This document shows, piece after piece, positions 5,146 through 50,181 of a stretch of 64,000 nt of DNA; position 1 is the first letter of the stretch, and each line of letters starts with the position of its first letter. The position numbers were made by a program, and so were the translations under genes. Source of the stretch: Acidobacteriota bacterium (lineage in GTDB: Bacteria; Acidobacteriota; UBA6911); NCBI GenBank assembly GCA_031271905.1, contig JAISUT010000032.1, forward strand, positions 13,887-77,886. Direction: 5' to 3'. Below the pieces are notes generated by a model. It was not told where the DNA came from. It searched no databases and saw nothing but the letters and a program-made list of their open reading frames with translations.

Positions 5146-5186
5146 GATAAAGATCCCCTGAAAACAAAAACCGTCCGCGCCCCCCC

Positions 5187-18566: not shown

Positions 18567-18644
18567 ACGCACGGTCCGGCACAGCCCCGACACCATCCCC
18601 ACGGCGTCCCGATCGCCGATAACCACGCGGGAACTCCTGCAGGG

Positions 18645-22008: not shown

Positions 22009-22152
22009 CGCTCCGCGCCAGCCCCGGCGAAGGAAATCCGGTAACAAATCCCCCGCGTCACGTAAATAAGACGTGCGGCGTGACAAGCCGCCGTTTGACG
22101 CAGGGGCGCTTCACCTGTCTAAAATGCTTTTACTATAAAGGAGGGATCGCGT

Positions 22153-23868: not shown

Positions 23869-23924
23869 CGCGGACACAATAAAATTCCCTATACTCCCTT
23901 TCCCTTGACGGGCGGGTTTCATCG

Positions 23925-23987
23925 GGGAACCTCCAAAAGCCCCGGACGCCGCGTCGCGCCTTGTCTGCGAGCTTTTTAGAAGTCCCC
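23925..23987 (+). repeat. MITE/REP-like element, short form (copy G)
   Basis: ggggaaCCTCCAAAAGCCCCGGACGCCGCGTCGCGCCTTGTCTGCGAGCTTTTTAGAAGtcccc. Confidence 0.85.
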
Positions 23988-23988
23988 C

Positions 23989-25713: not shown

Positions 25714-26023
25714 GGCGCCGTGCCGTCCCCTCGAGAAAACAATTAGTTAATATACAGAGCCGCAACCGCAATAGGAAAGGGCTAACTGCAAAGTTAATTT
25801 GATCGAGCCCGGCCAAGTCCGATTGGCGCGGGAACGGCGCTTGCCGCCGGGAAATCCCCCGGGAATTCCTAAAAAATTCTGAGAAAACACAGCGGATTTG
25901 GTATCCTAATGTCCGTCATTTTGAATTTGTGGCACATTTAAAAAAACCGTAGGCGAAACGCTGGTGTTGCGTCCGGGCTTTTTGCAAGTGCCATCGGGGG
26001 GGCAGGTGAACGAGAGGGATGGA

Positions 26024-28480: not shown

Positions 28481-28522
28481 GGGAGGACGGCGCGACGCGC
28501 CACCATTCTTAAGGAGGAGGCA

Positions 28523-29752: not shown

Positions 29753-29854
29753 GAAGATAGGCTGGGTCATAAGCTTCATTATCATGATGATGGAAGGTGT
29801 TTTGCACTCGCCGTCATCCGCTCGCTTTCGTATTTTTTATAGGATGTGTAGGGT

Positions 29855-31378: not shown

Positions 31379-31514
31379 GAAAAGACTGCGGGCGCGGCTC
31401 GGCGCCTTCCCAATTTCTCCAAGGCGACGGGTGTTCGCAAAAAAGGGGGCGAATGTCCGCATCGCACCACAAGCCGCCAAGCCCTCGGCGCCATGCATCG
31501 ACATCAACCACAGC

Positions 31515-31632
31515 GAACCTCTAAAAACCCCGGATGCTGCGTTGCGCCTTGGTCGAGAATGCTCATTCGCCTCGGCGAACCCCGCTTTTCGACCTGCGGC
31601 GACGCCTTGTCTGCGAGCTTTCTAGGGGCGCC
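31515..31632 (+). repeat. MITE/REP-like element, long form (copy H)
   Basis: cgaaCCTCTAAAAACCCCGGATGCTGCGTTGCGCCTTGGTCGAGAATGCTCATTCGCCTCGGCGAACCCCGCTTTTCGACCTGCGGCGACGCCTTGTCTGCGAGCTTTCTAGGGG. Confidence 0.9.
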
Positions 31633-31678
31633 CCACAATGTGTTCGACTGACGGCTTGGCCTTCGCCGAGGTCGCGCC

Positions 31679-33386: not shown

Positions 33387-36300
33387 CTAGAACTGGTAGC
33401 GCACGGCGAACTGCAACTTGCGCGGGGTGCCCACGGTCGATGTGATGGTGCCGAACCCCGAGGAGCCCAGGTTCGCGTCGGGCAACCCGTAATGCGTCCT
33501 GTTCATGACGTTGTAAGCTTCCAACCTGACTTGTATGGCCTGGCTCTCCCGGACGCGGAAGCTCTTATGCATCGAGATGTCGATGTTGAAGTATCGCGGC
33601 CCGGCGAAGGCGTTCCTTTCCGACGTCCCGGAGACGCCCGCCTCGGGCGCGTTGAACTGGCTCCCGGTAGTCGGATCGATCCAGTAAAGGATGCCGGTCT
33701 GGCTGTCCCTGTACAGCTCCCCGATTTTCGCCTCGCTGGTCCGATCCAGGTCGGCAAGGCCGTTCACGCCGGCGAACTGGTTCTCCATGCCGGATGTGAC
33801 GCTGAACCGCGCGCCGCTTTCATAGGTGCCCAGCATCCCGATGGTCCAGTTGGCGAGGAAGGCGTTGACCCATCCGGGCTGGTCGGTCTCCTCGTCCAAG
33901 TCCCGTCCGAAGGGGAGGGCGTAGCGCCACGCGAACGTGAAGACGTGGTTGCGGTGGAAGTCGCTGTACCCCTTGCCGGCCCCGAGGTTGAAGCTGTCCG
34001 CAGGGGCGACGTAGGATGCGCTCGATCCCGAGACGGTGTCCTTGGAGCGGCTCCAGGTGTAGAACGCCTTGAAGCCGTAGTTGGCCCCGGTCTTGCGGGC
34101 GCCCACACGCACCGCGTCGTACCACGAGTCGGCGGCGTTGGTGCCGTAGATGAACTGGTCGAACTGCGGGAAGTGCCGGATGTAGAAGTTCGCCTCGGAG
34201 GCGGCGACCGGGGAGTTGTAGGTGCCCGTGTCGAACACATATTGGTTGGTGGCGGGGTTGTAGGCGCGATCCAAGGCGTCCACGACCGCGCCGTACCGGT
34301 TGGCGCTGAAGTTATCCCCCTCCAGCGCGTTCAGCGCGGCAAGCGGCGTCCCGAAGATGTCGAGCAGGGCGTTGTTGGGCGAAAAGTTGTTACATGCCGT
34401 GGACGGGATGACGGAGTAGTCGCACTCCCGGTAGGAGCGCAGCTCCTGGAACGCCGTCAGCAGCTCCCCCGCGCTCTCCGCCCGGTTCTGGTTGAGGTTC
34501 AGGTATTGGAACAGCTTCGTGCCGCGGGTGCGGGAGTAGCCGACCTCCCACTGCAAGCCCGCCCACCTCCGCTCCAGCGTCGCGTGCATCTGGTGTACGC
34601 GCGGCGTCTTGAGGTTGTCGTCCAAGATGGCGATGTTGCGGGCGCGCCGCCCCTCCGGGTCGCTCAAGACGGACGTCGAGGCGGCGGTCAGTTGCGTCGC
34701 CGTGACAGGGATGGAGTAGGCGGCGTCGAAAAGCTGCGGGGCGCCGCAATTCTCCGCCGCGTCGGTCGAGTACGGGAGGCAGGTGACGCTCTGTTCAAAG
34801 CCGTAGCTGTTGCGGTCGATGAAGTTCACGACGCCGCTGCCGAGCTGGTCGTAATAGATGCCGTAGGCGGCGCGCACTACGGTCGAGCCGTCCCCATAGG
34901 CGTCCCAAGCCAGCCCCACGCGCGGCGCGAAATTCAGCTTGTCGCTCTTGTACCAGACGCCCTTCACGACGCGGAAGTCGCCGATGTTCGCGATGCCGCC
35001 CAGGTCGCTTCCCGAACCGATGTCGCCCGCCTTGTCAAGCCGGCTCTGGTAGCCGTTGGACTCCTTGGGCGCGGTGAAAAGCTCGTAGCGCACGCCGAGG
35101 TTCAGGGTGACGTTCGGCTTGACCTTCCAGTCGTCCTGGACAAAGCCGCTCAACGCCCATGAGGTGAACCGCCGCTCGCGCGCCGAGCCGGCGGGGAGCC
35201 AGCCCGAACGGTCGGCGTTGGCGTAGAACGTCTGGCTCACGCTCTCCACGCGACCGGTCATGGTGTTGTAGAGGTGCTCGAAAAGCGTCCTGCCGTCGGC
35301 GGAGATCGGGAGGATGTCGTCGGCGGTGATGACGGTCCCGTTCGTGTTGACGCCGGTCGTGAGCGGCCCGATGTTCGCCGGAGCGGCGCCGTTCGAGTTG
35401 CCGAAGGTCACGGTCGGGTACGCGCCGCTGTAATCGGTGCTGCCGAACGTCGTCCGGCGCAGGGAGAAGCCGTATTTGAAGGCGTGGACGTTCCTCGAAT
35501 GGGAGAAGGTGTCCGAGACCTCGAACGCCGGGAAGCGGTACGACTTGGGGTACGACGGGTTCAACGGGTCGGTCCACACGGCGGAGTAAGGCATAGCGCT
35601 TGCGGCGCGGTCGGGACGTTCGTAGTCGGCGTCCGTCCGCACATAGCCCACGCGCAGCTCGTTGACCATGGTCGGGCTCAGGACGTAGTCCGAGCCGACG
35701 GTGATGCCGAAGTCGTTGGTCTTGAACAGGCCGGAGTTCAGCCCCGGATAAGCCGCGTCCGCGCCGTTCTGCGTGTCGGTGGCGTCGGTGCGGCTCCAGT
35801 TGACGCGGGCGAAGATGTGGTGCCTGGCGTCGATGTCGTGATCGACGCGGACGTCCGCCCTGTGCTGGTGATAGTGCGTGTCGCCGTTGAACTCGTATCC
35901 GGCCGTGTTGACGCCGTCGCCGATGCGGTAGTTGTTGGCGACCGGCATCAGGTCGATGACGCTTTGCGCCGCCGCGCCGACGGGGATGTTGAACTTCTGG
36001 ACCGTGTCGTCGTCGAAGGTCGTCTCGTTGGGCGCGTACCAGCGGAACACGCCCAGGCGGGCGACGTCGGTCTCGTCGGTGTCGCCGGTCAGCACCAGCC
36101 GGTTGCGGTAGACCTGCTGCTCGTTCCTCACGCCCTCATAGCTGCCGAATATGGCGGTCTTCGAGGTCAAGCGCCCGGAGACGACTCCGCCGAAGATGTT
36201 GCGCATCGCCTCCGGGCGGTCGAGGTCGCCCGTGTCGGCGAAATGCCCGGTGGCGTCCAGGTGGTGGGAGTTGAAGTAGTCGTAAAAGTTGCCCGTCCAC

Positions 36301-37004
36301 TTCGCCGCGCCCTGGCGGGAGGTCAAGACCACCTGCGCCCCCGCGCCGCCGTATGCCGCACCCGCGTTCGAGGTGATGACTTGCACGTCGGAAACCGCGT
36401 CGATGTTGATCGGGAGCAGGGAGCGCCCGATGCCGGGGGAGAGCGGGGCCGTCTCCGTCAGGCCGTCGCGCGTCAGGGTCGCCATGGTCGGCAGGGTGCC
36501 GTTCACGGCGGAGGCGGCCTCGTTGCCGCCGTCGATCTGCACGCCGGGCTGGACGGTCGCCAACGCCAGCGGGTTGCGATCCAGCAAGGGGTAGTCTTGC
36601 AGGTCGCGCCAGCCGAAGGCGTCCGCGAGGTCGGAGTCGAGCGTCCGGGGGCGTTCCACCGGGCCGACCTCGTTGTCGATGGCGGCGACCTCGAAGCTGA
36701 TGTTGAGCGCGGCGCCGCCGGGGACGAGGATGTGGACGTTCCGTTGCACGACATCCTTGAACCCTTGGGCTTTGGCGGTGACGGTGTAGGCGCCGGGCTG
36801 CAACACCATGAAGCGGTAGTAGCCGTCGCTGTCGCTAACGGTCTCGGCGCGCCGGCCGGTGGCGTCATCGACGGCGGAGAGCGCGACCCCCGGCAACGGG
36901 TTCCCGGCAGGATCCCACACGATCCCCTCCAAGTGCAACGAACCCGTCTGCGCCGCAAGCGGCATGCACGTCATGCCCCACAACACCGCCAATCCGACGG
37001 CCAT
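33387..37004 (-). CDS. TonB-dependent receptor-like outer-membrane protein with an N-terminal carboxypeptidase-regulatory-like domain
   Basis: Signal peptide; CarbopepD_reg-like N-terminus (GIVWDPAGNPLPGVALSAVDDATGRRAETVSDSDGYYRF); ~1200 aa; C-terminal ...AVRYQF ending in Phe. Confidence 0.7.
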   Translation of the reverse strand: MAVGLAVLWGMTCMPLAAQTGSLHLEGIVWDPAGNPLPGVALSAVDDATGRRAETVSDSDGYYRFMVLQPGAYTVTAKAQGFKDVVQRNVHILVPGGAALNISFEVAAIDNEVGPVERPRTLDSDLADAFGWRDLQDYPLLDRNPLALATVQPGVQIDGGNEAASAVNGTLPTMATLTRDGLTETAPLSPGIGRSLLPINIDAVSDVQVITSNAGAAYGGAGAQVVLTSRQGAAKWTGNFYDYFNSHHLDATGHFADTGDLDRPEAMRNIFGGVVSGRLTSKTAIFGSYEGVRNEQQVYRNRLVLTGDTDETDVARLGVFRWYAPNETTFDDDTVQKFNIPVGAAAQSVIDLMPVANNYRIGDGVNTAGYEFNGDTHYHQHRADVRVDHDIDARHHIFARVNWSRTDATDTQNGADAAYPGLNSGLFKTNDFGITVGSDYVLSPTMVNELRVGYVRTDADYERPDRAASAMPYSAVWTDPLNPSYPKSYRFPAFEVSDTFSHSRNVHAFKYGFSLRRTTFGSTDYSGAYPTVTFGNSNGAAPANIGPLTTGVNTNGTVITADDILPISADGRTLFEHLYNTMTGRVESVSQTFYANADRSGWLPAGSARERRFTSWALSGFVQDDWKVKPNVTLNLGVRYELFTAPKESNGYQSRLDKAGDIGSGSDLGGIANIGDFRVVKGVWYKSDKLNFAPRVGLAWDAYGDGSTVVRAAYGIYYDQLGSGVVNFIDRNSYGFEQSVTCLPYSTDAAENCGAPQLFDAAYSIPVTATQLTAASTSVLSDPEGRRARNIAILDDNLKTPRVHQMHATLERRWAGLQWEVGYSRTRGTKLFQYLNLNQNRAESAGELLTAFQELRSYRECDYSVIPSTACNNFSPNNALLDIFGTPLAALNALEGDNFSANRYGAVVDALDRAYNPATNQYVFDTGTYNSPVAASEANFYIRHFPQFDQFIYGTNAADSWYDAVRVGARKTGANYGFKAFYTWSRSKDTVSGSSASYVAPADSFNLGAGKGYSDFHRNHVFTFAWRYALPFGRDLDEETDQPGWVNAFLANWTIGMLGTYESGARFSVTSGMENQFAGVNGLADLDRTSEAKIGELYRDSQTGILYWIDPTTGSQFNAPEAGVSGTSERNAFAGPRYFNIDISMHKSFRVRESQAIQVRLEAYNVMNRTHYGLPDANLGSSGFGTITSTVGTPRKLQFAVRYQF

Positions 37005-37349
37005 GATGGAAACCCCGATGGGACAATGGATGAATCGGCTACCGGATCGGATCACCCCGCACCTCCTGAACCTGAAAGAATCAATCAACGCAAACCACGC
37101 AACCGACGCAGACCACATACGAACACCGCATCGGCGATGCGCCCGGATTCCCCGTGAGCACGTAATTGTACATTAACGCCCCCCATTGTCGATAGTTGCA
37201 ATTTATTGTCGCTGTGATGGCGGCCTTATCGCATCGGCGTCTTCCGGGATGGCGGGGATGTGCGCACGGCGGCGCTTGCCGCCCCTGTACGAAAAGCGGC
37301 GGCTCGCCCCTCGGCTCGCCGCCGCATCGGTGTCGTCACGCCACCGGCG

Positions 37350-37850
37350 TCACTGCCCCGGGTCCCGCCTCTGCTCCGGGTCCCGCCCCCCGCGCTGCTG
37401 CCAAGGCGGGGGCGGCGGGCCGAAGCCGCGTTCGCCGTGAGGGCCGGCGCCGCGCCCTTCCCCGCGCCCTTCCCCGCCCCGCCGTTTTTCCACGTCGACA
37501 AGGAAAGCATCCAGCTTCGCCTTTTGCGCATCGTCCAAGATGCCGTGTATCTTCTTGTTGGTCTCATCGATGACTGCATCGATCTTCGACCGCTGCTCCA
37601 GGCGCAGGGCGTCCAGCCGTTGCCTCGACTCCGCCATGATCGCCTCGAAACGGGACTCCTGTTCGGAGGACATGTCCAGCAACTCCGGCAGGCGCACCCT
37701 GGGCGGGGGCGGTTGCGGCGCGCCCAAGGAGGCAGGCGTCGAGCCTGCGGCGCGCCTGCCGTACCGGATCCAGGTGCCCGCCGCGCCGATCAGGCAACCC
37801 AATGCCAAGACCGCGACCAAGACGGCAATCGCCCGCGTCCGTTCCCTCAC
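37350..37850 (-). CDS. Periplasmic LTXXQ-motif (Spy/CpxP-like) protein
   Basis: TM/signal anchor followed by a helical region with RLDALRLEQRSKIDAV-type motifs; GTG start overlapping the anti-sigma stop (GTGA); the ORF-track N-terminal extension is rejected. Confidence 0.5.
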   Translation of the reverse strand: MRERTRAIAVLVAVLALGCLIGAAGTWIRYGRRAAGSTPASLGAPQPPPPRVRLPELLDMSSEQESRFEAIMAESRQRLDALRLEQRSKIDAVIDETNKKIHGILDDAQKAKLDAFLVDVEKRRGGEGRGEGRGAGPHGERGFGPPPPPWQQRGGRDPEQRRDPGQ

Positions 37851-38320
37851 CACACCCCTCCCCCTTGCACCAGGGTCAACGCGAACTCGGTGTCGCTGCT
37901 GGTCAGCAACGTCTCCGCCAGGTTGGCGGCATCGGCCTGGTTCAGCAATTTCTCGTATTCGTACTCCTTGGCCTGCCCGACGCCGGGGGCGAACCAGAGC
38001 AGGGCGCAAAGGACGAGCGTCGTGCCGAATGCGAGGAAGGCCAACCGGGGCCGGAACCAGGATGCCAGCAACCCGTCCCAAGAGGCGTCGGCCGCCAAGG
38101 CGGCGACCTGCCCGAACGCCCGCCGGGCGATGCGATCCGCCAAATCCACGGTTTGGACGGTCTCCCGCCGCAACGCCGAGACCACGTTGTCCAGCAACGC
38201 CATCCGCGTCCGGCAATATTCGCAAACGGCCAGATGGCGCTTGAAGCCCTCCCGTTGCGAGCCGTCCAGTTCCCCGTCGCGATAGCGATCCAGCAATTCA
38301 CATCCGTGGGTCTTGTCCAT
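37847..38320 (-). CDS. Zinc-finger (ZAS) anti-sigma factor
   Basis: HLAVCEYC HxxxCxxC motif; single TM; lies 7 bp downstream of the ECF sigma gene. Confidence 0.6.
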   Translation of the reverse strand: MDKTHGCELLDRYRDGELDGSQREGFKRHLAVCEYCRTRMALLDNVVSALRRETVQTVDLADRIARRAFGQVAALAADASWDGLLASWFRPRLAFLAFGTTLVLCALLWFAPGVGQAKEYEYEKLLNQADAANLAETLLTSSDTEFALTLVQGGGVW

Positions 38321-38327: not shown

Positions 38328-38927
38328 TCAGCGCCCCCTTTCCCCGCGACCAGCCCGCCAAGCGTTGAACTTCTTCTGCAACTCGGATCGCGCCCGGGAG
38401 ACGCGTACCCTCGCGGTGACCTCCGACGTCCCCAGTATCTTTGCGACTTCGCCGTACTCCCGCTCCTCCACCTCCCGCAGGACGAACGCCGCCTTGTATT
38501 TCGGATTCAGCCCGTTCACCAGCGTCTGCGCGATTTCGGCATACCCGTCCACGTCCCTAGCCCCCGTCGAATCCCGGGCGTCCTCGCCGGAGAAGTCGCG
38601 CAACAGCCGCTCCTGCTCCAACTCCCCCAACTCCGACCACAAACGGGTCTTCATGTTTTTGCGCTTTCGCAACTGGTCGATGCAGTAGTTGGTCGCGATG
38701 CGCAAGACCCAGGGGCCGAAGGGATAGCGCGGGTCGAACTTCCCGAGCGCGGAGAACGCCCTGAGGAACGTCTCCTGCACGGCGTCCTCCCAATCGGGGG
38801 AGGCGCCCAGCAGGCGGCGCACCACCCCGCAGACCGCCCCCTGGTACCGGCGAACCAGTTCGGCGAAAGCCTGCTCGTCGCCTCCGAGCGCCTTTTCGAT
38901 CAGAACCGCATCCGTCGCATCCATCAT
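38328..38927 (-). CDS. ECF RNA polymerase sigma factor
   Basis: Sigma-70 region 2 (FAELVRRYQGAVCGVVRRLL...WEDAVQETFLRAF) and region 4 (YGEVAKILGTSEVTARVRVSRARSEL). Confidence 0.85.
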   Translation of the reverse strand: MMDATDAVLIEKALGGDEQAFAELVRRYQGAVCGVVRRLLGASPDWEDAVQETFLRAFSALGKFDPRYPFGPWVLRIATNYCIDQLRKRKNMKTRLWSELGELEQERLLRDFSGEDARDSTGARDVDGYAEIAQTLVNGLNPKYKAAFVLREVEEREYGEVAKILGTSEVTARVRVSRARSELQKKFNAWRAGRGERGR

Positions 38928-39020: not shown

Positions 39021-39437
39021 TCAATAATGGGGGTGGAGATGTTTTTTGACGATGCCGCGGATGGGGCCCGAAAGATCCTTCCATTCGACGGTGCCGTTCT
39101 TCTTGACCATGATCAGCTCCGGTTGCAACGTGACCTCTTCCACCCCCGGCAACTCGAACAGGCTGCGCACCAACCCGTCGTCGGTGACGGGGATCTCGAG
39201 CCGGCTCCGGTACAGCCGCGTCGTCTCGGCGATGTGGAACCCCTCGAGGTAGTACACGGCGATGTTGTCGTTGGTGTTTTCCGAGGATATGCCCGGCTCG
39301 ACGACCTCGATGTCGTCCGCAGGCGCGGTGAGTTGGACATAGACGACCACGCAGATCGCGCCCAAGACGACGATCAGCCCGAGCAGGAACAGGAGGTTGG
39401 AGAATTCGTATCCCTTGAGGCTCTTTGCCTTGCCCAT
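39021..39437 (-). CDS. Membrane-anchored Nfu_N-domain protein
   Basis: N-terminal TM helix; C-terminal region resembling the Nfu/NifU N-terminal scaffold domain (SLFELPGVEEVTLQPELIMVKKNGTVEWKDL); strong GGGAGGTG Shine-Dalgarno sequence upstream of the 39437 ATG. Confidence 0.5.
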   Translation of the reverse strand: MGKAKSLKGYEFSNLLFLLGLIVVLGAICVVVYVQLTAPADDIEVVEPGISSENTNDNIAVYYLEGFHIAETTRLYRSRLEIPVTDDGLVRSLFELPGVEEVTLQPELIMVKKNGTVEWKDLSGPIRGIVKKHLHPHY

Positions 39438-39576
39438 CCCCACCTCCCTTTGCCCGCCTAGTTGAGCCTGTCTATAAAACATCGTCGGCTTGGTCCGACG
39501 GCGGTTTTTGGTCAAACCGCCGTTTGCCGCACCATATCCCGGAACCCGCACCTATGGGCAGGTTCCGGTTATGCCG

Positions 39577-40812
39577 CTATTCGTAACGCAAGCATTCGAT
39601 CGGGTCGAGGTTGGACGCCTGGATGGCCGGATAGATCCCGAAGATCAATCCGATGACCGAACTGACGCCGAAGGAGAGCACCACGGAGCTGGCGGTGACG
39701 ATCGTGCTCCAGCCGGAGAAGAACGACACCGCCTTGGATATGCCGTAGCCCAGCCCCACCCCGATGAGGCCGCCCGCGAAGCTGATGGCGATGGCCTCCG
39801 CCATGAACTGCACCCGGATGTCCATCTTCTTGGCCCCGATGGCGCGCCGCAGGCCGATCTCGTTCGTCCGTTCCAAGACCGACGCCAGCATGATGTTCAT
39901 GATGCCGATGCCGCCGACCAGCAGCGAGATGCTGGCGATGGCGCCCATGACGATGTTGAAGATGCCCTGCGTCTTCTGGTTCTGCTCCAGCAGCTTCTCC
40001 GGCACCACGATGGAGTAGTCGTCCACGTAGTTGTGCATCGCCGACATGAGGTTGGTGACCGTGGACGCCTGCTCCTTGATCTCGGCGTCGTCGCCGATCA
40101 TGATGACGATCTCGTTCAGCTCGTTCTCCACGTCCTCCGTGTCGAACTTGCGTATCGCCGTCGTGATGGGGATGTAGATGTCGTTGTTGGGGTTCTGCAC
40201 CTTGACCCCCTCGAACTCCTGCTTTTCCACCACCGCGTCGCCCAGAACGCCGACCACCGTCAGCCAGATGTCGTTCACCTTGATCTGCTTGCCCAGCACG
40301 TCGCCGAAGCCGAACAGCTTCTGCTTGGCGGTCATGCCGAGGACGCAGACCTGGGCGTTGTCGGTCTCGTCCTGCGCGGTGAAAAACGCCCCCTGCAATA
40401 TCTTCAGGTTCTGGATGACCGGGTAGGTGCTGCTGACGCCGAGCACGCGGCTGTCGCTGCGCGCCGTATCCGAGTTGATCTGGTAGGTCTTCAATATCCG
40501 CGAAGCGGTGATCGTCGGCTTCGGCTTCAGGACGTTCGACAGGGCCTCCACGTCGCGCATGCTGACCCCCAGCGACTCGGTGCGGATCTGCCGGAGCTCC
40601 TCCGTCTTGAAGTCCTTGGCCTGGATGATGATGTTGCGGATGCCGAAGCTGGCGATGGTGCGAAGGCTCTCCTCCTCAGCGCCCGCCCCGATCGAAAGCA
40701 TCGCGATCACGGCCCCGACCCCGAAGATCATGCCGAGCATCGTCAGGAAAGACCGCAGCTTGTGTCTGCCCAGGCTCGCCAGGGCGCCTACCATTGTCTC
40801 CATCGCTACCAT
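39577..40812 (-). CDS. ABC transporter permease, FtsX/MacB-type, with no fused ATPase
   Basis: MacB periplasmic core domain plus four-TM FtsX pattern; 411 aa, so permease only. Confidence 0.8.
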   Translation of the reverse strand: MVAMETMVGALASLGRHKLRSFLTMLGMIFGVGAVIAMLSIGAGAEEESLRTIASFGIRNIIIQAKDFKTEELRQIRTESLGVSMRDVEALSNVLKPKPTITASRILKTYQINSDTARSDSRVLGVSSTYPVIQNLKILQGAFFTAQDETDNAQVCVLGMTAKQKLFGFGDVLGKQIKVNDIWLTVVGVLGDAVVEKQEFEGVKVQNPNNDIYIPITTAIRKFDTEDVENELNEIVIMIGDDAEIKEQASTVTNLMSAMHNYVDDYSIVVPEKLLEQNQKTQGIFNIVMGAIASISLLVGGIGIMNIMLASVLERTNEIGLRRAIGAKKMDIRVQFMAEAIAISFAGGLIGVGLGYGISKAVSFFSGWSTIVTASSVVLSFGVSSVIGLIFGIYPAIQASNLDPIECLRYE

Positions 40813-40836
40813 AGAAAATCAGGCCTCGTCTCATTC

Positions 40837-40956
40837 GGGAACCTCTAAAAACCCCGGACGCTGCGTTGCGCCTTGATCGAAAATGCTCATTTACCCCGGT
40901 AAACTCCGCTTTTCGACCTGCGGCAGACGCATTGTCTGCGAGCTTTTTAGAGGTTC
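40837..40956 (+). repeat. MITE/REP-like element, long form (copy I)
   Basis: gggaaCCTCTAAAAACCCCGGACGCTGCGTTGCGCCTTGATCGAAAATGCTCATTTACCCCGGTAAACTCCGCTTTTCGACCTGCGGCAGACGCATTGTCTGCGAGCTTTTTAGAGGttctc; lies between HlyD gene 3 and the permease. Confidence 0.9.
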
Positions 40957-41111
40957 TCATTAATCAGAACAATCGCAAGGCAGGTTCGGAAACCGACCCG
41001 CCACCCGCTCGGCGCGGGCGGTCGGCGGGGGCGGCACCCGCCGGAACGAAGCGCCGCCCCCGCCTTCTTCACGACTTCACGACAACCGCAAGGCGCGGCG
41101 CGCCATCCGCG

Positions 41112-42506
41112 TCACCGCATCCGCATCATGCCCCCGCCGGGGGGGCCGCCGGGGCCGGGGCCGCGCATCTGCTGCTGGTTCCCCGTGCCACCCTTGTTGA
41201 AATCGGGAAGCGACAGCTTCCGGGTTCCGTTCGGGTCGGTCAGGGCGATGACCTCGCCGTCCTCCACGCCGCCGACGATGACCGCCTCGCCGTGGGAGCT
41301 GAGCCCCGTCTCGACCACCCGCGCCTCGAACCGGTCGCCGTTCTTCACGTACACGATGTTGCCCGACTGGTTGTCCTGCGTGGTGACGGCGGCGGAAGGA
41401 ACCACGAAGCACGATTCATACTCGTGCAGGATCACGTCGCCGCGCAGGTTCATCCCCGGCCTGATCTGCTTCAGGTCGCGGCCGGCGTCCGAAATCGTCA
41501 CGTCGCAGGTGAAGTAGCGCAGGGGGGAGTTCCGCTCCAATGCGGCCGCCACCGAGGAGACCGTGCGGATGGTGCCGTGGTAGACCTTGTCCGGCACGGC
41601 GTCCAGCTTGATGTTCACCGGCATGTTCTTTTCCAGGTGGCCGCCGTCCCTCTCCAAGACGTAGATGCGCGCCTGCAAGGCGTCGAGGTTGATGATCTCG
41701 ACGATCACCTGCCCCGGGAAGGAGCTGTTTCCGACCTCCGGCTCCTCCCGGCGGTCGCGGTGGTACAGGACCAGGCCGGACACCGGCGCGCGCAACTCCA
41801 AAGAGCTCAGCGTCCTTTGATAGGTGGCGACCTCGTTCTCGGCCTTGGTCTGGTCTATCATCAGCACCTGCATCTCGGAGCGGGCCGTCCGCTTCTGCGT
41901 CTTGGCCTTGCTCTTGAGGAACTCCAGGTTCTCCTTCTGGTAATGCACGTCCGACTGCTTGGTGATGATGTCCCACTTGGAGAAGATCGTCTCGTCCTCC
42001 GGCATCACCGTCACGGCGTATTGGTAGTCTTCTTCCGCGCTCTCCAGGTCGAGCTCCATGGTCTTGTCGTTCGTCCCCTGCTGGAGCGTCTTGATCTTGA
42101 TGTTCTGCTGGTTGGACTCCAGCGTGTTCTGGCGCTTCTCCAAGTTCAGCTTGGTGTCGGTGCTGTCGAAGCGCACCACCGGGTCGCCCTCGTTCACGAA
42201 GCTCCCTTCCTGGATGAGCCAGGAGATGGTCAACTGGCCGGAAGACGTGTTGGGCGTGGCCACCGATGTCGTCTCCAGGCCGACGACCTCCCCGTCGGCG
42301 GAAACCGTGAGTGAAAACGGCTGCTTCTCCAGCTTGGTCACCGGAATCGCTTCGCTGTCGGTGGAGGCGAACACCTTGGAGATGCGGCTCGATATGCTGC
42401 CCCGGAAATAGAGCAGCAGGGCACCGGCGGCGACGAGCACCACGCAGGTCACGAGCTTCCCGACCACCTTGGACTTTTTTTGGCTTTTTTCGTCGATGTT
42501 CATCAT
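41112..42506 (-). CDS. HlyD-family membrane-fusion (periplasmic adaptor) protein, paralog 3
   Basis: N-terminal TM; long coiled coil; beta-barrel/lipoyl-like C-terminal segments; Gly/Pro-rich C-terminal tail. Confidence 0.75.
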   Translation of the reverse strand: MMNIDEKSQKKSKVVGKLVTCVVLVAAGALLLYFRGSISSRISKVFASTDSEAIPVTKLEKQPFSLTVSADGEVVGLETTSVATPNTSSGQLTISWLIQEGSFVNEGDPVVRFDSTDTKLNLEKRQNTLESNQQNIKIKTLQQGTNDKTMELDLESAEEDYQYAVTVMPEDETIFSKWDIITKQSDVHYQKENLEFLKSKAKTQKRTARSEMQVLMIDQTKAENEVATYQRTLSSLELRAPVSGLVLYHRDRREEPEVGNSSFPGQVIVEIINLDALQARIYVLERDGGHLEKNMPVNIKLDAVPDKVYHGTIRTVSSVAAALERNSPLRYFTCDVTISDAGRDLKQIRPGMNLRGDVILHEYESCFVVPSAAVTTQDNQSGNIVYVKNGDRFEARVVETGLSSHGEAVIVGGVEDGEVIALTDPNGTRKLSLPDFNKGGTGNQQQMRGPGPGGPPGGGMMRMR

Positions 42507-42526
42507 TAACCTCGCAACAACTTAGC

Positions 42527-43756
42527 TTAGGACGCCTGCGGGCGCGTCCGGATTTTCTCTCCGGCGGCAAGGCCCGATTCCACCACCGCCGTCGTGCCGT
42601 CGTTCGACTTGAGCTGCACCTCGCGCCAGTCGGCCTTCTTGGTCTTGGCGTTGTAAACCTGCACAAACGACCGGCCGTTGCGCTCTGTGATGCTGGCGAG
42701 CGGGATCACGACCGCCTTGGGGTACTGGCCGACGCGGATCTGCGCCTTCAGGCTCATGCCGGGGCGCAGCACCTTGGTGTCCATGTTGGTGAGATCGACA
42801 TATATCTCGTTGATCTTCTGCGGACGGTCGTAAGTCGCCTGCTTCAAGATGGTGCCGACGCTGGTGATCTTGCCGGTGAAGGAGCGCCCCTGCACCGCGT
42901 CCACGGTGATGTTGGCCTCCTGCCCGATTTTGACCTTGCCCGAATCGAGCTCGTCTATCTGCACCTTGGCGCGCATCGTCGAAAGGTCGGGGATCTCCAT
43001 CACCTTGTCCATGCCGAAGATGTCGCTGCCCACCTCCTTGGCTTCGTTGTTCCAGTCGCGCTTGTAGATGACCACCCCCGAAACCGGGGCGCGCACCGTG
43101 TAAGAGTCGATGGCGTCCATCAGGTCGTCCATGCGGTCGCGGGAATAGCGCTCGGAGCTGCGCGATATCTGCAAGGACAACTGGCCGCTCTCGGTGACGT
43201 ACTGGACCTTCTTCTCCATCAGCTCCACCTTGGTCTTGGCCGCGTCCCGGTCGATGCGGGTCTCCTCGACCTGGATGCCGCTGAGCAGCTCGGCCTGCTC
43301 GCTCAACTTCACTTCGAGCTTTTCAAGGTCCGACTTCGCCTGCTCCAACTGGAGCTTCAACTGCTTCAGGTTCGTGTCGGCGGAGGCGCGGTTCTGCTGG
43401 CGCTGCTCCTGGACCTTCTGGAAGTTGGCGGTCTCGTCCCTCAGGCTGTTGTTGATGTCCGTGGTGTCGAACTCCATCAGGAAGTCGCCCTCGGACACCT
43501 GCGTCCCTTCGTCCACCATGCGCATCAGCTTGAACCGGCGCTGGCGGCGCACCTGGGGCGGTCCCACATCGACGCTCTGGCTCGCTTCCAACGTCCCGGT
43601 GGCGCTGATGATGACCGGGTAATCGACCTGTTGCACCGTCAGCAGGTCCTTGTCGCTGACGTTGGCCGAAGCGTCCCGGGAGCGGTACATCCAAAAGCCC
43701 AAGCCCGCCACGACCACCAGCGCCGCGACCAAGATAAGTTTCTTTCGGGAGTTCAT
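42527..43756 (-). CDS. HlyD-family membrane-fusion protein, paralog 2
   Basis: N-terminal TM; coiled coil; HlyD-like C-terminus. Confidence 0.75.
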   Translation of the reverse strand: MNSRKKLILVAALVVVAGLGFWMYRSRDASANVSDKDLLTVQQVDYPVIISATGTLEASQSVDVGPPQVRRQRRFKLMRMVDEGTQVSEGDFLMEFDTTDINNSLRDETANFQKVQEQRQQNRASADTNLKQLKLQLEQAKSDLEKLEVKLSEQAELLSGIQVEETRIDRDAAKTKVELMEKKVQYVTESGQLSLQISRSSERYSRDRMDDLMDAIDSYTVRAPVSGVVIYKRDWNNEAKEVGSDIFGMDKVMEIPDLSTMRAKVQIDELDSGKVKIGQEANITVDAVQGRSFTGKITSVGTILKQATYDRPQKINEIYVDLTNMDTKVLRPGMSLKAQIRVGQYPKAVVIPLASITERNGRSFVQVYNAKTKKADWREVQLKSNDGTTAVVESGLAAGEKIRTRPQAS

Positions 43757-45078
43757 TTTTTGGTCACCTCAGCAAGGAATTGAACGGGGAGCAGCTTGTC
43801 GCCGACCGAAACGCCGGACTTGACCTCCACCAGCTTGTCGCCCATGGAGCCGACCTCGACGAACTGGGTGTCGGCGTCTTTGGCGCTGGTGCCCTTGACC
43901 ACATAGGACTTCCCCTTGGAATCGGTGCCGACGTACTCGCGGGGCACCGTCGTGACGCCTTTGGCCAAGACCAGCGGGATGTTGATGCGCGCCGTCATCC
44001 CCGGCTTCAACTTCGAGGAATCCACCTTGTCGAGCCGGATCACGGTCTGGAACAGCTTCTTCTCCGAAGAGAACCCGCGCCGGCTGGCCACGCTGGTGAG
44101 CGATACCACCCGACCGCCGACCTCGTATCCGGGTAGCGCGTCGAGCGTCACGGTGCAGGGCATCTCGGCCTTGATCTTGCCGTATTCTGTGTCGTACACA
44201 TAGCCGACCACCTGCATGCTCTCAAGGTCGGGGATGCTCGCCACCTCCGCGCCGGGGAAGATGGTGTCGCCCGGCTGGACCTTCCGGTTGTTCTGCCAGT
44301 TGTCGCCGTAGATGAAGATGCCGTCCTGGGGGGCGTACATCTTCAGCAGCGTCATGTCGCTGTCGATCTTCTTGAGGTTGATCTCCGCCTGCGACTTGTC
44401 GATTTCCACCAGCGCCATCTGGGAGTCGTAGCTGTCTTCGAAGTTTTTCAGCGACTCCTTCGCTTTTTCCAAGGAGAGCTTGGCCTTCAGGAGGTCCAGT
44501 TGGTATTTCTGGTAGTCGTTCGCGGAAAGGAGGCTCTTGTCGATTTTGGCGTAGAGCTGGGCTTTTTTCAGCGTCGCCTCCGCCTGGGCGACGCTGTTCA
44601 ACTGGTCGCAACGGTCCGCCTCGAGGTCGGCCTTCTGCTTGGAGATCTTCAACTTGTTTTCGTCCAGCGTCTTTTCGGCGTCCGAACGGGAGCTGAGCAG
44701 CGTGGAGTCGTCGAATTCGACGACCAGCTCGCCCGCATGCACGACCGACCCCTCGTCGGCCATGTAGGTGAGCGTGTTGTTGAAGCTGCTCTGGATCCTG
44801 GGGGCGAGGATGCTTATAGACCGCTCGGCCTTCAGCTCTCCCGTGAGCACGACGTCCTGGAGCACTTCGCCCGCCTCCACGACATATCCCTTCGGCTTGC
44901 TGGAGGAGAAAGCCTCTTCCTGGACGATGGGCGGCTCGGCGGCGTTTTTTTTGCCGCCGCCGAGTCCGGGGTTCTGCGCGGAAACGCGCGCCGTCCCGGT
45001 CAGGGCCGCGCAAAGGACGACGCCCGCCGCAACCGCGGCGGCGCGCCGGAACCCGACCTCACGCATCCATGTCGACAT
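43753..45078 (-). CDS. HlyD-family membrane-fusion protein, paralog 1
   Basis: Signal/TM anchor; coiled coil; HlyD-like C-terminus; start uncertain (45066, 45078 or 45198). Confidence 0.7.
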   Translation of the reverse strand: MSTWMREVGFRRAAAVAAGVVLCAALTGTARVSAQNPGLGGGKKNAAEPPIVQEEAFSSSKPKGYVVEAGEVLQDVVLTGELKAERSISILAPRIQSSFNNTLTYMADEGSVVHAGELVVEFDDSTLLSSRSDAEKTLDENKLKISKQKADLEADRCDQLNSVAQAEATLKKAQLYAKIDKSLLSANDYQKYQLDLLKAKLSLEKAKESLKNFEDSYDSQMALVEIDKSQAEINLKKIDSDMTLLKMYAPQDGIFIYGDNWQNNRKVQPGDTIFPGAEVASIPDLESMQVVGYVYDTEYGKIKAEMPCTVTLDALPGYEVGGRVVSLTSVASRRGFSSEKKLFQTVIRLDKVDSSKLKPGMTARINIPLVLAKGVTTVPREYVGTDSKGKSYVVKGTSAKDADTQFVEVGSMGDKLVEVKSGVSVGDKLLPVQFLAEVTKK

Positions 45079-45098
45079 GGTCATCCTGTTCATAAAGC

Positions 45099-46346
45099 TT
45101 AACCCCGATTTCGATTGTTGGAATTGCCGGCGTTGTTGAATTTCGGTTTCGGCCTGGGATCCGCCGGCATGGGCTGTTCGTTGAGCCACGCGCTCCAATC
45201 CGATTCGATCTGCGCAAAATTGTCGCCCAGCACGTCGGGCTGGACGAGATATTCGCGGGTCTCCTTCCCTTGGCGCACGTACTGGATGAGCTGCTTCATC
45301 CCGCCGGCGCCGAACTTCTGCAGGAAAAACTCGAAGAAGGTGATGGCCTGTCCGTCGAAAAGCAACCGGTCCTGCTCGGCCTTGGACAGGACGCGCGGGG
45401 GCATCCCCTCGCCGCCGGCCTTGGGCTTGGTCCGCGTCCCCTGCCCTCCGGCGCCGCCGCCGGGGAAGCCGCCGCCCGGCATCCCGCCGCCCATGCCGCC
45501 ACCGGGGAAGCCTCCGCCCATCTGCCCCATGCCGCCGCCGGGGAAGCCTCCGCCCATCTCGCCCGCTCCGCCGCCGTCGGAGCCGCCGGAGCCGCCCTGC
45601 TGGTCGGAGGAGGTGCTGACGAAAGGCCGGGACATGCCGATGACATCTTCAATGGAGAAGGCTTGGTCGAGGTTCGCGCGCAGGTACCGGATCGCCTCCG
45701 TGTCGCCGCTGGCGTAGGCGGCGATGCCGACGTCCAGCCAGTCCGGCAGGGGGCTCTTGACCACATCCGTGACGCGGCTGGAGCGGTAGCGGAAATCCGC
45801 GCCGCCCAGCATCGACTGCAGCACGGCGAAAGCGATGTCGCGCGCCATCTCGCCGGCCGCCTGCTGCTCGGCGCCCGACGCCATGTCGCGCGGCGGGTTG
45901 CTCATCCGGCGGCGCATCTCCTCCGGCATGTTGTCGCCGATGCGCGAGCGGATGCGCGCCATGGTCTCCTGCATCCGCACCTCCGGCGTGACCGAGATCA
46001 GCACCCAACTATACCCTCGCTTGAGCACCACCGGCTCGTAGAGGGAATCCTTCTGCGCCAGGTTCGAGCAGATGAAGATCGCGCCCTTGGGCAGGTCTTC
46101 GTCGAACAGCCCCTTGAGCTTGGCCACGGCTTCCGCGGCGGCCTTCTCATAGGGGGCGATCACCTGCCGGCTGGAGGCGAAGAAGTCCACGCCGGGGACG
46201 ACGTTGTGGAACGTGTTGAAGTTCTTGAAGCTGACGGCCTGGGCGTGCGCACAGTCCGCGCCTGACAGGGCGGTCAGCGCGACCAGCGGCGCGACCAGCA
46301 ACCAGCCCAAGGATAGGATCCTGCTTGTTCGTGTCATTCTCAACAT
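45099..46346 (-). CDS. Secreted hypothetical protein with an internal Gly-rich tandem repeat (GGFPGGGMG)
   Basis: Signal peptide at MLRMTRTSRILSLGWLLVAPLVALTALS; about 60-aa Gly-rich repeat encoded by ~27-bp DNA tandem repeats; first gene of the exporter cluster. Confidence 0.5.
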   Translation of the reverse strand: MLRMTRTSRILSLGWLLVAPLVALTALSGADCAHAQAVSFKNFNTFHNVVPGVDFFASSRQVIAPYEKAAAEAVAKLKGLFDEDLPKGAIFICSNLAQKDSLYEPVVLKRGYSWVLISVTPEVRMQETMARIRSRIGDNMPEEMRRRMSNPPRDMASGAEQQAAGEMARDIAFAVLQSMLGGADFRYRSSRVTDVVKSPLPDWLDVGIAAYASGDTEAIRYLRANLDQAFSIEDVIGMSRPFVSTSSDQQGGSGGSDGGGAGEMGGGFPGGGMGQMGGGFPGGGMGGGMPGGGFPGGGAGGQGTRTKPKAGGEGMPPRVLSKAEQDRLLFDGQAITFFEFFLQKFGAGGMKQLIQYVRQGKETREYLVQPDVLGDNFAQIESDWSAWLNEQPMPADPRPKPKFNNAGNSNNRNRG

Positions 46347-46627
46347 GCGCGCGCTCCGTCCCCCGATGAAAAAAACCGCCACGGCCGCCCCGCTTCCCAA
46401 CGACCGGGCGCACACGCCCATCGCCCATCGCCCATGGGCGGCCATGGGCAGGTTCCCAGTTCGTTTTACGCTGGTTAACTACGTCCCGGGTGCGCGGCTT
46501 GTTACATCTTTAAACTTTAAACAAACGCCGGCGGCGGGCGGCCCCGCGTCGCGCCATGGGGAGGCGCGCAGGCGCGGCAAGCACGCATCGGCGACCGGCG
46601 ACGCGACGCCGAAACGCGACGCCGCGA

Positions 46628-47365
46628 CTAGGGGCGACGCCTCACCACCCCCTTGGACGACAGGTGGAAGGGCGGCGCGATGACCGCGTTCACCTCTTTT
46701 TGATGCCCTTTGACGTCCCACGCCTTCTCGCAGAAGCGGTCGAGGATGCCCCCGCGGACCCGGGGGCGGCCGTCGGCGGCGAGGTAGACCTGTATCAGCT
46801 TCTCCCGCACCGCCTCGTCCCCGTTGCGGACCAGGCAATCGACGGCGGCGACGCACACGTCGTCATCGTCGTCGTCGAGGAAGCGGCGCACCGTCTCGCC
46901 CGCATGGGGGAAGGCGTCGGCGCCGAGGTTCGCGATCAACACCGTCTTGGCCTCCGGCCAGCGGGCATAGCCGACCGAGAGCGCGTCCAAGACCCCTAGG
47001 AGCGCTTCGTAGAACGCTCCCGGCGGGAGGATGCGTTTCAGCGCCTGGACGGGGAAGGTGACGTCGGGCTCCGTCCGCAGGTAGTCGAGGATCGGCTTGA
47101 CGGCGACCTCGCCCATCCCCGCGAGGAGCTTCACCGCATACTGCTTCTCTTCGAGATCCATGCTCGCCTGCGGCGTCTGGACGGTGAAGCGGCGCAACAG
47201 CGCCGCCGCCGCCGGCGGCGTCCCCCAGCCCGCCAGGCGCTCCATGGCGGCGACCCGGGTGGCCGCCTCGCCGTGCAGTTGCGTGACCTGCTTCACCGCC
47301 CGCCGTATCTGCCCCTCGGAGGGCCCTGCGTCGTCCGAGGCGAAAAGTCTGCTGAAAATCCCCAT
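46628..47365 (-). CDS. HEAT-repeat-like hypothetical protein
   Basis: Repetitive helical pattern (LLRRF...AVKPILDYL...AVDCLVRNGDEAVREKLIQ). Confidence 0.4.
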   Translation of the reverse strand: MGIFSRLFASDDAGPSEGQIRRAVKQVTQLHGEAATRVAAMERLAGWGTPPAAAALLRRFTVQTPQASMDLEEKQYAVKLLAGMGEVAVKPILDYLRTEPDVTFPVQALKRILPPGAFYEALLGVLDALSVGYARWPEAKTVLIANLGADAFPHAGETVRRFLDDDDDDVCVAAVDCLVRNGDEAVREKLIQVYLAADGRPRVRGGILDRFCEKAWDVKGHQKEVNAVIAPPFHLSSKGVVRRRP

Positions 47366-50043: not shown

Positions 50044-50164
50044 AGGGAGCCTCTGAAAACCTCGCAGACAAGGCGTCGCCGCAGGTCGAAAAGCGGAGTT
50101 CGCCGAGGCGAATGAGCATTTTCGACCAAGGCGCGACGCGGCGTCCGGGGTTTTCAGAGGTTCC
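50044..50164 (-). repeat. MITE/REP-like element, long form, reverse orientation (copy J)
   Basis: gggagCCTCTGAAAACCTCGCAGACAAGGCG...GGGGTTTTCAGAGGttccc; lies between thiD and the LOG gene. Confidence 0.9.
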
Positions 50165-50181
50165 CAGAAAGGGGACGATTC

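Follow-up and report, generated by a model that had tools for sequence, protein, structure and literature searches.

In the YknWXYZ system of Bacillus, which confers resistance to the SDP toxin, a small accessory membrane protein modulates the assembly of a membrane fusion protein (MFP), an FtsX-type permease and an ATPase, which can depend on it (PMC4887032). In TriABC-OpmH of Pseudomonas aeruginosa, two different adaptors serve one pump (PMC8277102). On the regulatory side, the main text of Casas-Pastor et al. (2021) describes, for the extracytoplasmic function (ECF) sigma factor group ECF281, neighbourhoods with a zinc-finger anti-sigma factor at position +1 and a heavy-metal-resistance (PF13801) protein at position +2 (PMC7826278). 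These systems, and the MacAB-TolC exporter, are the closest known counterparts of a six-gene cluster and an adjoining sigma operon on a 64-kb stretch of DNA from an Acidobacteriota bacterium (contig JAISUT010000032.1, assembly GCA_031271905.1; the whole stretch is hereafter called the window). With a confidence somewhat better than even, we read this cluster as a conserved operon of one uncultured Acidobacteriota clade, which encodes a MacAB/YknWXYZ-like type VII ATP-binding cassette (ABC) envelope exporter and probably owes its transcription to the ECF sigma factor encoded next to it. The pump is of a known kind, though an unusual variant, and does not represent a new type of system.

With MacAB-TolC the cluster shares the MacB fold and domain order (MacB_PCD followed by FtsX) of its permease, an adaptor (HlyD2) that is nearest to MacA, and an unlinked outer-membrane factor (OMF). 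It differs in that its nucleotide-binding domain (NBD) is neither fused nor adjacent, in having three adaptors instead of one, in encoding two extra conserved proteins, one with an Nfu_N fold and one with likeness to MA peptidases, and in its ECF-type promoter. With YknWXYZ it has in common an MFP, a separate FtsX-type permease and a small accessory membrane protein; furthermore, the precomputed Pfam matches of HlyD2 and HlyD3 orthologs are YknX barrel domains, and the best NCBIfam match of the window's sigma factor is SigW. The Bacillus operon contains the YknY ATPase, where there is none here, one adaptor instead of three, and an accessory protein of the Yip1 family instead of one with an Nfu_N fold; moreover, Bacillus has one membrane, whereas the Acidobacteriota are assumed to have two, which fits the outer-membrane barrel genes in the window. 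Membership of the YknWXYZ system is ruled out by the lack of an ATPase and of a Yip1-family protein, and the resemblance is a functional one. In TriABC-OpmH, too, one operon supplies a single pump with adaptors of different kinds, but TriC is a trimeric transporter of the resistance-nodulation-division (RND) family served by two adaptors, as opposed to a dimeric ABC-type permease with three. From these comparisons we infer that the system works most like MacAB-TolC, while its accessory content and, by extension, its ECF control would be closest to YknWXYZ.

Gene order, permease and the absent ATPase

The cluster lies on the minus strand and consists of six open reading frames (ORFs) encoding a glycine-rich protein, the adaptors HlyD1, HlyD2 and HlyD3, an FtsX permease and an Nfu_N protein; downstream of the last follow genes for an ECF sigma factor, a zinc-finger anti-sigma factor and a Spy-like protein (Table 1). 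The ORFs and domain calls of the original prediction are borne out by the ORF list and by Pfam and NCBIfam, and domain scans likewise support its view that this is an exporter-type locus, whose three adaptors are paralogs and whose permease is devoid of an ATPase domain. The two finer details that it had listed, a 4-bp overlap of the HlyD2 start with the HlyD1 stop and a repeat element between HlyD3 and FtsX, are both present. The start codon of the Nfu_N gene (39437) is backed by an identical database protein from an Acidobacteriota metagenome-assembled genome, and that of HlyD1 (45078) by the lengths of called orthologous genes.

Two look-ups of permease homologs, combined with a scan of species-representative genomes using an Nfu_N alignment, yielded 24 related loci (L001-L024), all from uncultured Acidobacteriota. 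By tblastn, the order of the first gene (PepMA2-like), HlyD1, HlyD2, HlyD3, FtsX and Nfu_N is the same in these loci wherever the DNA extends. The original prediction had asked whether the flanking genes co-occur with the transporter, and they do: the Nfu_N gene was found in 24/24 loci and the glycine-rich gene in 21, the other three contigs starting downstream of it. After the Nfu_N gene, a gap of ~0-2 kb precedes the ECF sigma, anti-sigma and Spy-like genes, and the outer flanks differ from locus to locus. Many close homologs of the permease, 84-92% identical, occur in metagenomes; all organism names among them are Acidobacteria or Acidobacteriota. An exact-sequence look-up of the window permease itself matched no record. 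Literature searches on FtsX/HlyD/Nfu combinations and on orphan MacB permeases turned up neither a MacB system with three adaptors nor the present cluster.

The permease matches MacB_PCD (PF12704) at 121 bits and FtsX (PF02687) at 69.9 bits in Pfam, has no ABC_tran domain, and displays the MacB/FtsX architecture of an N-terminal transmembrane (TM) helix, a periplasmic MacB_PCD domain and a C-terminal FtsX three-helix bundle. Its top PDB matches are MacB (E 1.6e-50); its full length can be aligned with MacB residues 280-669, which follow the NBD, and with the stand-alone permease Spr0695. The coupling helix after TM2, through which such permeases contact the NBD (pattern ERT.EIG..RA.GA), is present as SVLERTNEIGLRRAIGA. 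No gene of the cluster is more conserved, the permease being 80-87% identical across the clade, periplasmic domain included, against 39-73% for neighbouring genes, and a block at residues 301-330 is 97% conserved inside the clade. Conservation of this degree is unusual for an efflux permease and may reflect many protein contacts or one fixed substrate. Membership of the duplicated ADOP permeases (TIGR03434) was ruled out: the NCBIfam match reaches 122.6 bits against a cut-off of 622.3, and ADOP proteins are duplicated MacB_PCD+FtsX modules of ~800 aa, where here a single 411-aa module is found. We take ADOP to stand for 'Acidobacterial duplicated orphan permease', and the existence of this family shows unlinked FtsX-type permease genes to be a known trait of Acidobacteria.

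A motif scan of the window found one complete set of Walker A, signature and Walker B motifs, in a gene at about 20.9-22.0 kb. This ATPase was ruled out as the partner of the permease; it belongs to an importer, because it has a TOBE domain and follows an adjoining BPD_transp_1 permease gene. No OEP domain, indicative of a TolC-type OMF, was detected by Pfam in any window gene scanned, and tblastn with the MacB/LolD-type NBD and the OEP protein of the nearest relative found nothing further in the window or in the 24 loci. The remaining window genes supported by their GC content at third codon positions (GC3) have Pfam matches of housekeeping, polysaccharide-export, TonB-receptor and regulatory types. 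The absence of an ATPase and of an OMF nearby, as originally claimed, is hence upheld in the window, and extends to ~10 kb around the cluster at the 24 loci; its being unusual is not upheld for the OMF, since in Escherichia coli tolC is unlinked from macAB.

Relatives outside the clade place this absence in perspective. An exhaustive HMMER search of 1.84 billion representatives revealed a large permease family, whose nearest representatives are 56, 49, 48 and 44% identical to the window permease. In the nearest outgroup loci, L025 and L026, the order is a divergent OEP gene, HlyD1-like, HlyD2-like, a 782-aa protein, HlyD3-like, FtsX and an ABC_tran gene that overlaps the FtsX stop and encodes an NBD of the MacB/LolD type. 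Like the window, these loci encode the three adaptors as orthologs in unchanged order, the hairpins being of identical length, and their permease is 55% identical; unlike it, they have their own NBD gene, the divergent OEP gene and the 782-aa protein, and are without the Nfu_N, PepMA2-like and sigma genes, the rest of the ECF module and the promoter motif described below. The 782-aa protein (L025 5769-8117, L026 2871-5216), encoded between the HlyD2-like and HlyD3-like genes, has no Pfam match. An NBD gene lies upstream of the adaptors in L032 and, together with an OEP gene, between adaptor and permease in L033; none was found on the short contigs of L027 and L029, nor in L028, whose contig is cut inside the first adaptor gene. 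Because its position varies among relatives, the NBD is a separate, movable gene in this subfamily.

As FtsX-ABC_tran and an OEP gene stand beside orthologs of the same three adaptors in the closest outgroup, loss of the ATPase from the operon is a derived state of the window's clade. The three-adaptor core itself is older than that clade. When the window permease is compared with its ATPase-linked counterpart in L025, identity amounts to 96% in TM2 and 74% in the coupling helix, and this preservation makes an ATPase supplied in trans more likely than a truly ATPase-less system. The term 'ATPase-less' in the original prediction is accurate for a permease that has no NBD domain; as a description of the system it is the less likely reading, since the outgroup has a linked ATPase and the NBD-coupling region is preserved.

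Three adaptors and two clade-specific proteins

All three adaptors exceed the Pfam cut-offs for HlyD_D23 and HlyD_3 and contain split lipoyl half-motifs flanking a hairpin insert, as in HlyD-family periplasmic adaptors, where beta-barrel and membrane-proximal domains follow. With TIGR01730 (cut-off 94.9), HlyD2 (98.3) and HlyD3 (112.6) score above and HlyD1 (78.2) below. The best solved relative of HlyD2 in the PDB is MacA. Weak NCBIfam matches to IhpB ('divalent metal exporter adaptor') and CzcB were set aside as generic adaptor similarity, IhpABC being unconfirmed as a MacB-type system and its source dealing with RND-family exporters. HlyD1 orthologs all have a Sec signal peptide ending at a conserved ASAQ/NPGL junction, and the N-terminal membrane anchors of HlyD2 and HlyD3 are conserved among orthologs; the Gly/Met-rich C-terminal tail of HlyD3 is poorly conserved.

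The original prediction had allowed that the adaptors might be decayed duplicates. All three ORFs are intact, their pairwise identity is 22-27%, and every locus covering the position of a given adaptor has a 1:1 ortholog of it (identity to the window 59-73% for HlyD2, 54-70% for HlyD3 and 52-64% for HlyD1), by which a recent or pseudogenised duplication is ruled out and the three stand as genuine genes. The low mutual identity, taken with 1:1 orthology, argues for an old triplication that is neither recent nor decaying. The coiled-coil hairpin inserts between the lipoyl half-motifs measure 122 aa in HlyD1 and 121 aa in both HlyD2 and HlyD3, without any indel in all clade orthologs. The same lengths recur in the orthologous adaptors of the distant relatives L025, L027 and L028 (25-34% identical), and single-adaptor relatives differ, with inserts of 126 and 192 aa.

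PDB entries for MacAB-TolC contain six MacA and two MacB chains each, so that each permease protomer faces three non-equivalent adaptor positions. By analogy, we infer that the three paralogs fill these three positions, in a (1-2-3)x2 ring. Hetero-oligomeric systems of the TriAB type are defined by two or more distinct adaptors from one operon that are all required and assemble together; here, three distinct, anciently diverged periplasmic adaptor genes are conserved in fixed order. In L026, the HlyD1-like and HlyD2-like genes were called as a single 825-aa ORF (413-2890). This fusion was rejected as Rosetta-stone evidence, given that L025, nearly identical and taken from the same long-read assembly, shows two genes that overlap; it is probably a long-read indel error, because L025 is unfused and because the TM anchor of HlyD2 would lie mid-protein, giving the wrong topology.

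The Nfu_N protein matches PF08712 at 36.5 bits (cut-off 27). It is composed of a near-invariant, cytoplasmic N-terminus (SLKGYE..NLLFFL), one TM helix and an Nfu_N-fold domain that ends in an invariant C-terminal HLHxH; a lysine-rich N-terminus followed by a single TM helix predicts this domain to be periplasmic. The AlphaFold2 (AF2) model has a mean predicted local distance difference test score (pLDDT) of 82.8, and Foldseek ranks 2ffm, 1pqx and 2ltm (SAV1430 and the NFU1 N-domain) at the top with probability 1.00. No NifU domain and no cluster-binding cysteines are present, the single Cys lying inside the TM helix. Identity as an Nfu/NifU iron-sulphur scaffold was rejected for a 138-aa protein that has neither a NifU domain nor CxxC ligands and whose domain is predicted to lie outside the cytoplasm; only the fold is shared. 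Across the clade, the protein is 39-61% identical to that of the window. Its gene occupies the slot after FtsX that ABC_tran holds in L025 and L026.

The first protein of the cluster had been described as a Gly-repeat secreted protein. Its glycine richness and signal peptide stand, but alignment and the AF2 model reveal a two-part folded periplasmic protein: a conserved N-terminal domain and a conserved helical C-terminal domain are joined by a variable Gly/Met/Pro-rich linker (about residues 243-315) that is predicted to be disordered. Its likeness to MA peptidases is weak and non-catalytic. The match to Peptidase_MA_2 (PF13485) reaches 22.8 bits, below the cut-off of 32.4, and no HExxH zinc motif occurs anywhere in the family alignment, so that membership of Peptidase_MA_2 and the gluzincins was ruled out; Foldseek returned no significant fold match in the PDB, M1 aminopeptidases appearing only at E >= 0.97. 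The family comprises 180 proteins, and all organism names among the matches listed are Acidobacteria or Acidobacteriota; identity to the window protein across the clade is 43-58%. The protein may be an accessory subunit or a cargo. Gly-rich low-complexity segments, poorly conserved in sequence and length, recur in signal-peptide-bearing or anchored proteins of this genome (Table 1).

Promoters, composition and neighbouring genes

The sigma factor matches Sigma70_r2 (67.8 bits) and Sigma70_r4_2 (50.8 bits) and the anti-sigma factor zf-HC2 (30.5 bits) in Pfam, and together they have the features of a pair formed by an ECF sigma factor and a zinc-binding anti-sigma factor (ZAS). The sigma factor is ~65% identical to that of the window across related loci. 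The Spy-like protein matches PF13801 at 20.7 bits, below the cut-off of 29.2, and its gene stands at the same position in 10/15 distinct related loci that hold the sigma gene. Compared by gene context alone, this layout of sigma factor, ZAS at +1 and Metal_resist-like protein at +2 resembles ECF281 (Casas-Pastor et al. 2021); it differs in that the +2 protein is sub-threshold here, and the main text of that source links no MacB-type exporter to the group (PMC7826278).

The original prediction had noted that the cluster adjoins an ECF sigma operon. The position is correct, but the relation goes beyond adjacency, since an ECF-type promoter motif is shared by the sigma gene and the cluster. P_sig (TGTAACAA-N14-CGTAA), which is present in the window and in 15/15 loci with a sigma gene, ends 13-15 nt before the start codon of that gene. 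Of 16 related loci whose contigs extend the full 330 nt 5' of the first cluster gene, 15 have a P_pep-type motif, GTAACAAG-N16-ACGTAA, at a distance of 39-92 nt from it; one further contig has only 59 nt. The window copy of P_pep has one mismatch to GTAACAA-N15-CGTAA, its last base being G, so that the -10 element reads CGTAG. Between loci, the GTAAC and CGTAA elements are invariant while the spacers vary (N15/17), and in 20 distinct related loci scanned the motif occurs at two places per locus only, 5' of the sigma gene and 5' of the first cluster gene. The P_pep motif is kept even in L011, although the 10 kb that follow Nfu_N there yielded no sigma gene. Because the first cluster gene and the sigma gene are each preceded by a conserved ECF-type promoter, the cluster is probably a member of the neighbouring sigma factor's regulon; the main caveat is a spacer difference of 2 nt between the two motifs.

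We take the motif to resemble the promoters recognized by Bacillus SigW and SigX. In Bacillus, SigW controls yknWXYZ among other genes, and its promoters have the sequence TGAAAC-N16-CGTA, which is close to the motif seen here. The sigma mRNA would be leaderless or nearly so, because the -10 element is only 13-15 nt from the start codon in every locus (the window and L001-L020). A third exact copy of the motif, GTAACAA-N13-CGTAA with the spacing of P_sig, lies in the window at 22041-22065 (+), 88 nt 5' of ORF 22153-22701 (+); this encodes a secreted protein of 182 aa that ends in a Gly/Pro-rich tail and has no Pfam match, a possible further member of the regulon. A second sigma-like gene at 9197-9913 (-), in which only Sigma70_r4_2 was detected, is followed by ORF 8157-9200, which has no Pfam match. 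The two may form a further sigma/anti-sigma pair, which could in principle read P_pep. A terminator scan found 14 candidates against 8.9 +/- 2.9 expected, which is not above background.

Table 1. Features of the exporter cluster, the sigma operon and associated repeats, in window coordinates
Feature	Position	Strand	Basis or remark
First cluster protein (secreted/periplasmic)	45099..46346	-	ORF; Pfam sub-threshold; family alignment; AF2 model
HlyD1 periplasmic adaptor (MFP)	43753..45078	-	Pfam/NCBIfam; cleavable Sec signal peptide; 122-aa hairpin insert
HlyD2 adaptor	42527..43756	-	Pfam/NCBIfam; N-terminal membrane anchor; closest to MacA; 121-aa hairpin insert
HlyD3 adaptor	41112..42506	-	Pfam/NCBIfam; N-terminal membrane anchor; 121-aa hairpin insert; Gly/Met-rich C-terminal tail
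Palindromic repeat copy in HlyD3-FtsX spacer	40837..40956	.	Dispersed repeat scan of window
MacB-type permease (type VII ABC, MacB_PCD+FtsX), 411 aa, without NBD	39577..40812	-	Pfam; PDB relatives
Nfu_N-fold bitopic membrane protein, 138 aa	39021..39437	-	Pfam; alignment; AF2; Foldseek
P_pep ECF-type promoter motif, GTAACAAG-N16-ACGTAG	46479..46505	-	133 nt 5' of first cluster gene
P_sig ECF-type promoter, TGTAACAA-N14-CGTAA	38940..38965	-	Motif end 13 nt from sigma start codon
ECF sigma factor (Sigma70_r2 + r4_2)	38328..38927	-	Pfam; SigW is best NCBIfam similarity
zf-HC2 anti-sigma factor, membrane-spanning, HxxxCxxC	37847..38320	-	Pfam; HLAVCEYC in translation
Spy/CpxP/Metal_resist-like protein, probably periplasmic, third gene of sigma operon	37350..37850	-	Weak PF13801 match
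Gly-rich segment GGGFPGGGM	45400-45620	-	First protein
Gly-rich segment GPGPGGPPGGGMM	41112-41190	-	HlyD3 tail
Gly-rich segment GEGRGEGRGAG	37350-37480	-	Spy-like tail
Gly-rich segment GGPGGPGGG	22490-22680	+	ORF 22153
Copies of the dispersed repeat	255-352, 4452-4523, 5082-5153, 15964-16052, 18644-18690, 23922-23995, 31513-31633, 40837-40956, 50045-50168		

The lower GC content that the original prediction had seen in the HlyD genes is real, the cluster having about 0.59-0.63 against a window mean of 0.66. As a sign of foreign origin it does not hold: the GC3 of the cluster genes (0.81-0.94) is like that of their neighbours, for which reason horizontal transfer was rejected and the dip is attributed to an amino-acid composition rich in K, N, D and E.

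The repeat within the operon is one of at least nine copies in the window of a dispersed intergenic palindromic element of ~70-120 nt, which has terminal inverted repeats (GGGAACCTCTAAAAA...TTTTTAGAGGTTCCC) and occurs in long and short forms and in both orientations. The copy between HlyD3 and FtsX is ~120 nt long (GGGAACCTCTAAAAA...TTTTTAGAGGTTC), and the region 40815-40975 folds to a hairpin of -62.8 kcal/mol (z -4.9). No Rfam family matched the repeat, which looks like a repetitive extragenic palindromic (REP) sequence or a miniature inverted-repeat transposable element (MITE). The distance between HlyD3 and FtsX is ~305 nt in the window, as compared with about 75-320 nt (mostly 150-250) between tblastn match ends in related loci. 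The in-operon copy is specific to this genome and no part of the conserved system.

A HEAT-repeat protein without a signal peptide (46628-47365, minus strand) is encoded near the cluster in 17/24 related loci, with 64-68% identity. In the window, its gene abuts P_pep; in L003 and L004 an opposite-strand hydrolase gene intervenes between it and the cluster, and L001 and L002 have the hydrolase gene without the HEAT gene. Directly downstream of the sigma operon, 33387-37118 (-) encodes a 1243-aa outer-membrane barrel (CarboxypepD_reg + OMP_b-brl_4), which is probably unrelated to the cluster because it is not syntenic in annotated relatives, a MutY-like gene standing there in L001-L004. A polysaccharide export and synthesis block at 25964-31378 (+) comprises a Wza-like Poly_export/SLBB protein, a Wzz/GNVR chain-length determinant and a Glycos_transf_4 initiating transferase.

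Proposed function, alternatives and meaning

In the scheme that we favour, envelope stress would inactivate the membrane-bound anti-sigma factor, and the freed sigma factor would then act at P_sig, to transcribe its own operon, and at P_pep, to transcribe the cluster of six genes; both motifs are observed, and their recognition is presumed. The FtsX/MacB permease would form a dimer, and an ABC ATPase encoded elsewhere would bind the preserved coupling helix and drive the 'bellows' movement of the periplasmic domain. Soluble HlyD1 and anchored HlyD2 and HlyD3, with their equal hairpins, would build a single hexameric (1-2-3)x2 ring matching the two-fold symmetry of the permease, and this ring would dock to an unlinked TolC-like duct. 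The substrate may be a noxious compound or peptide, periplasmic or membrane-associated, and the Nfu_N-fold and MA-peptidase-like proteins could be clade-specific accessory subunits, with a role such as that of YknW for YknXYZ.

Several observations weigh against this scheme. No cognate ABC ATPase, fused or in the same operon, and no OMF is encoded in the 64-kb window, as far as its genes were scanned, or within ~10 kb at the 24 clade loci. The P_pep motif of the window is by itself not significant, with 0.76 matches expected by chance; its spacer, moreover, is 2 nt longer than that of P_sig (N17 against N15 between AAC and CGT; 1 nt in L022), and a different ECF sigma factor could therefore read it. 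A drug pump induced by stress would not usually be conserved at 80-87% in its permease, periplasmic domain included, which hints at a housekeeping role or a more specific one. Equal hairpin length, finally, is also expected of three separate homo-hexamers that span the same periplasm.

The last point belongs to an alternative in which the adaptors build three separate homo-hexamers on one permease, so that three pumps result, for example for different ducts or substrates. Solved assemblies of MacA and of other adaptors are indeed homo-hexameric, and equal hairpins are required if each ring bridges the same distance, but co-transcription of all three genes with translational coupling through the 4-bp overlap, an order and number fixed across relatives 25-34% identical, and the lack of a membrane anchor in one adaptor suggest obligate, non-redundant subunits, as in TriAB. 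We consider separate rings rather unlikely.

It is also doubtful that the cluster is a dedicated secretion system, with the first protein as a cargo that is picked up in the periplasm and leaves through the channel of adaptors and OMF. MacAB-TolC does expel the enterotoxin STII; the gene in question always comes first in the operon, is restricted to the clade that has the cluster and encodes a signal peptide, and the unusually conserved periplasmic domain of the permease would suit one fixed substrate. The core machine nonetheless predates this gene, because relatives have the same three adaptors and permease without it; the protein, of ~400 aa in two folded domains, far exceeds known MacB peptide substrates in size; and at 43-58% it is less conserved than the machine that would export it.

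A periplasmic exporter or handler under metal stress, controlled by an ECF281-like sigma factor, commands equally little of our confidence, despite the arrangement of sigma factor, zinc-finger anti-sigma factor and PF13801-like protein that defines ECF281 neighbourhoods in the main text of their description (PMC7826278). The invariant HLHxH at the end of the predicted periplasmic Nfu_N-fold domain and the Met/Gly-rich segments in the first protein and HlyD3 would agree with a metal-related task, but these segments are not conserved, the PF13801 match is sub-threshold (20.7 against 29.2), and the IhpB and CzcB matches amount to weak, generic adaptor similarity. To our knowledge, no MacB-type metal exporter has been described.

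We regard as very improbable a truly ATPase-free machine, a scaffold or sensor that is passive or otherwise energised and in which the Nfu_N protein replaces the ATPase as the partner at the cytoplasmic face: the NBD gene is missing from the window and from ~10 kb around the cluster at 24 loci, Nfu_N sits exactly where L025 and L026 have ABC_tran and its cytoplasmic motif is near invariant, but TM2 and the coupling helix are essentially unchanged relative to the ATPase-linked relative, we know of no FtsX-family protein that acts without an NBD, and unlinked 'orphan' FtsX-type permease genes are in any case a known trait of Acidobacteria. Just as improbable is its more elaborate form, an ECF-controlled, non-ATP-driven device spanning the envelope, with a permease dimer, a (HlyD1-HlyD2-HlyD3)x2 ring and Nfu_N in the gene slot of the ATPase, serving for example as a periplasm-gated or metal-dependent conduit or sensor.

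Returning to the ATP-driven exporter with a mixed adaptor ring, its interest lies partly in the symmetry mismatch of MacB-type pumps, in which two permease protomers sit under six adaptors: three diverged adaptors with fixed order and hairpins would be a ready-made test of position specialisation. If true, the mixed ring extends the TriAB precedent, with two adaptors on a trimeric RND transporter, to ABC pumps, with three adaptors on a dimer. Interest in the cluster would rise sharply if such a ring were confirmed, or if no ATPase partner exists. The cluster also offers a concrete case of how 'orphan' FtsX-type permeases, which are common in Acidobacteria, find an ATPase, and another for the role of a periplasmic Nfu_N-fold domain. 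New with this analysis is the pair of promoters, which provides a candidate regulon and a recognition motif for an uncharacterised ECF sigma factor of an uncultured lineage.

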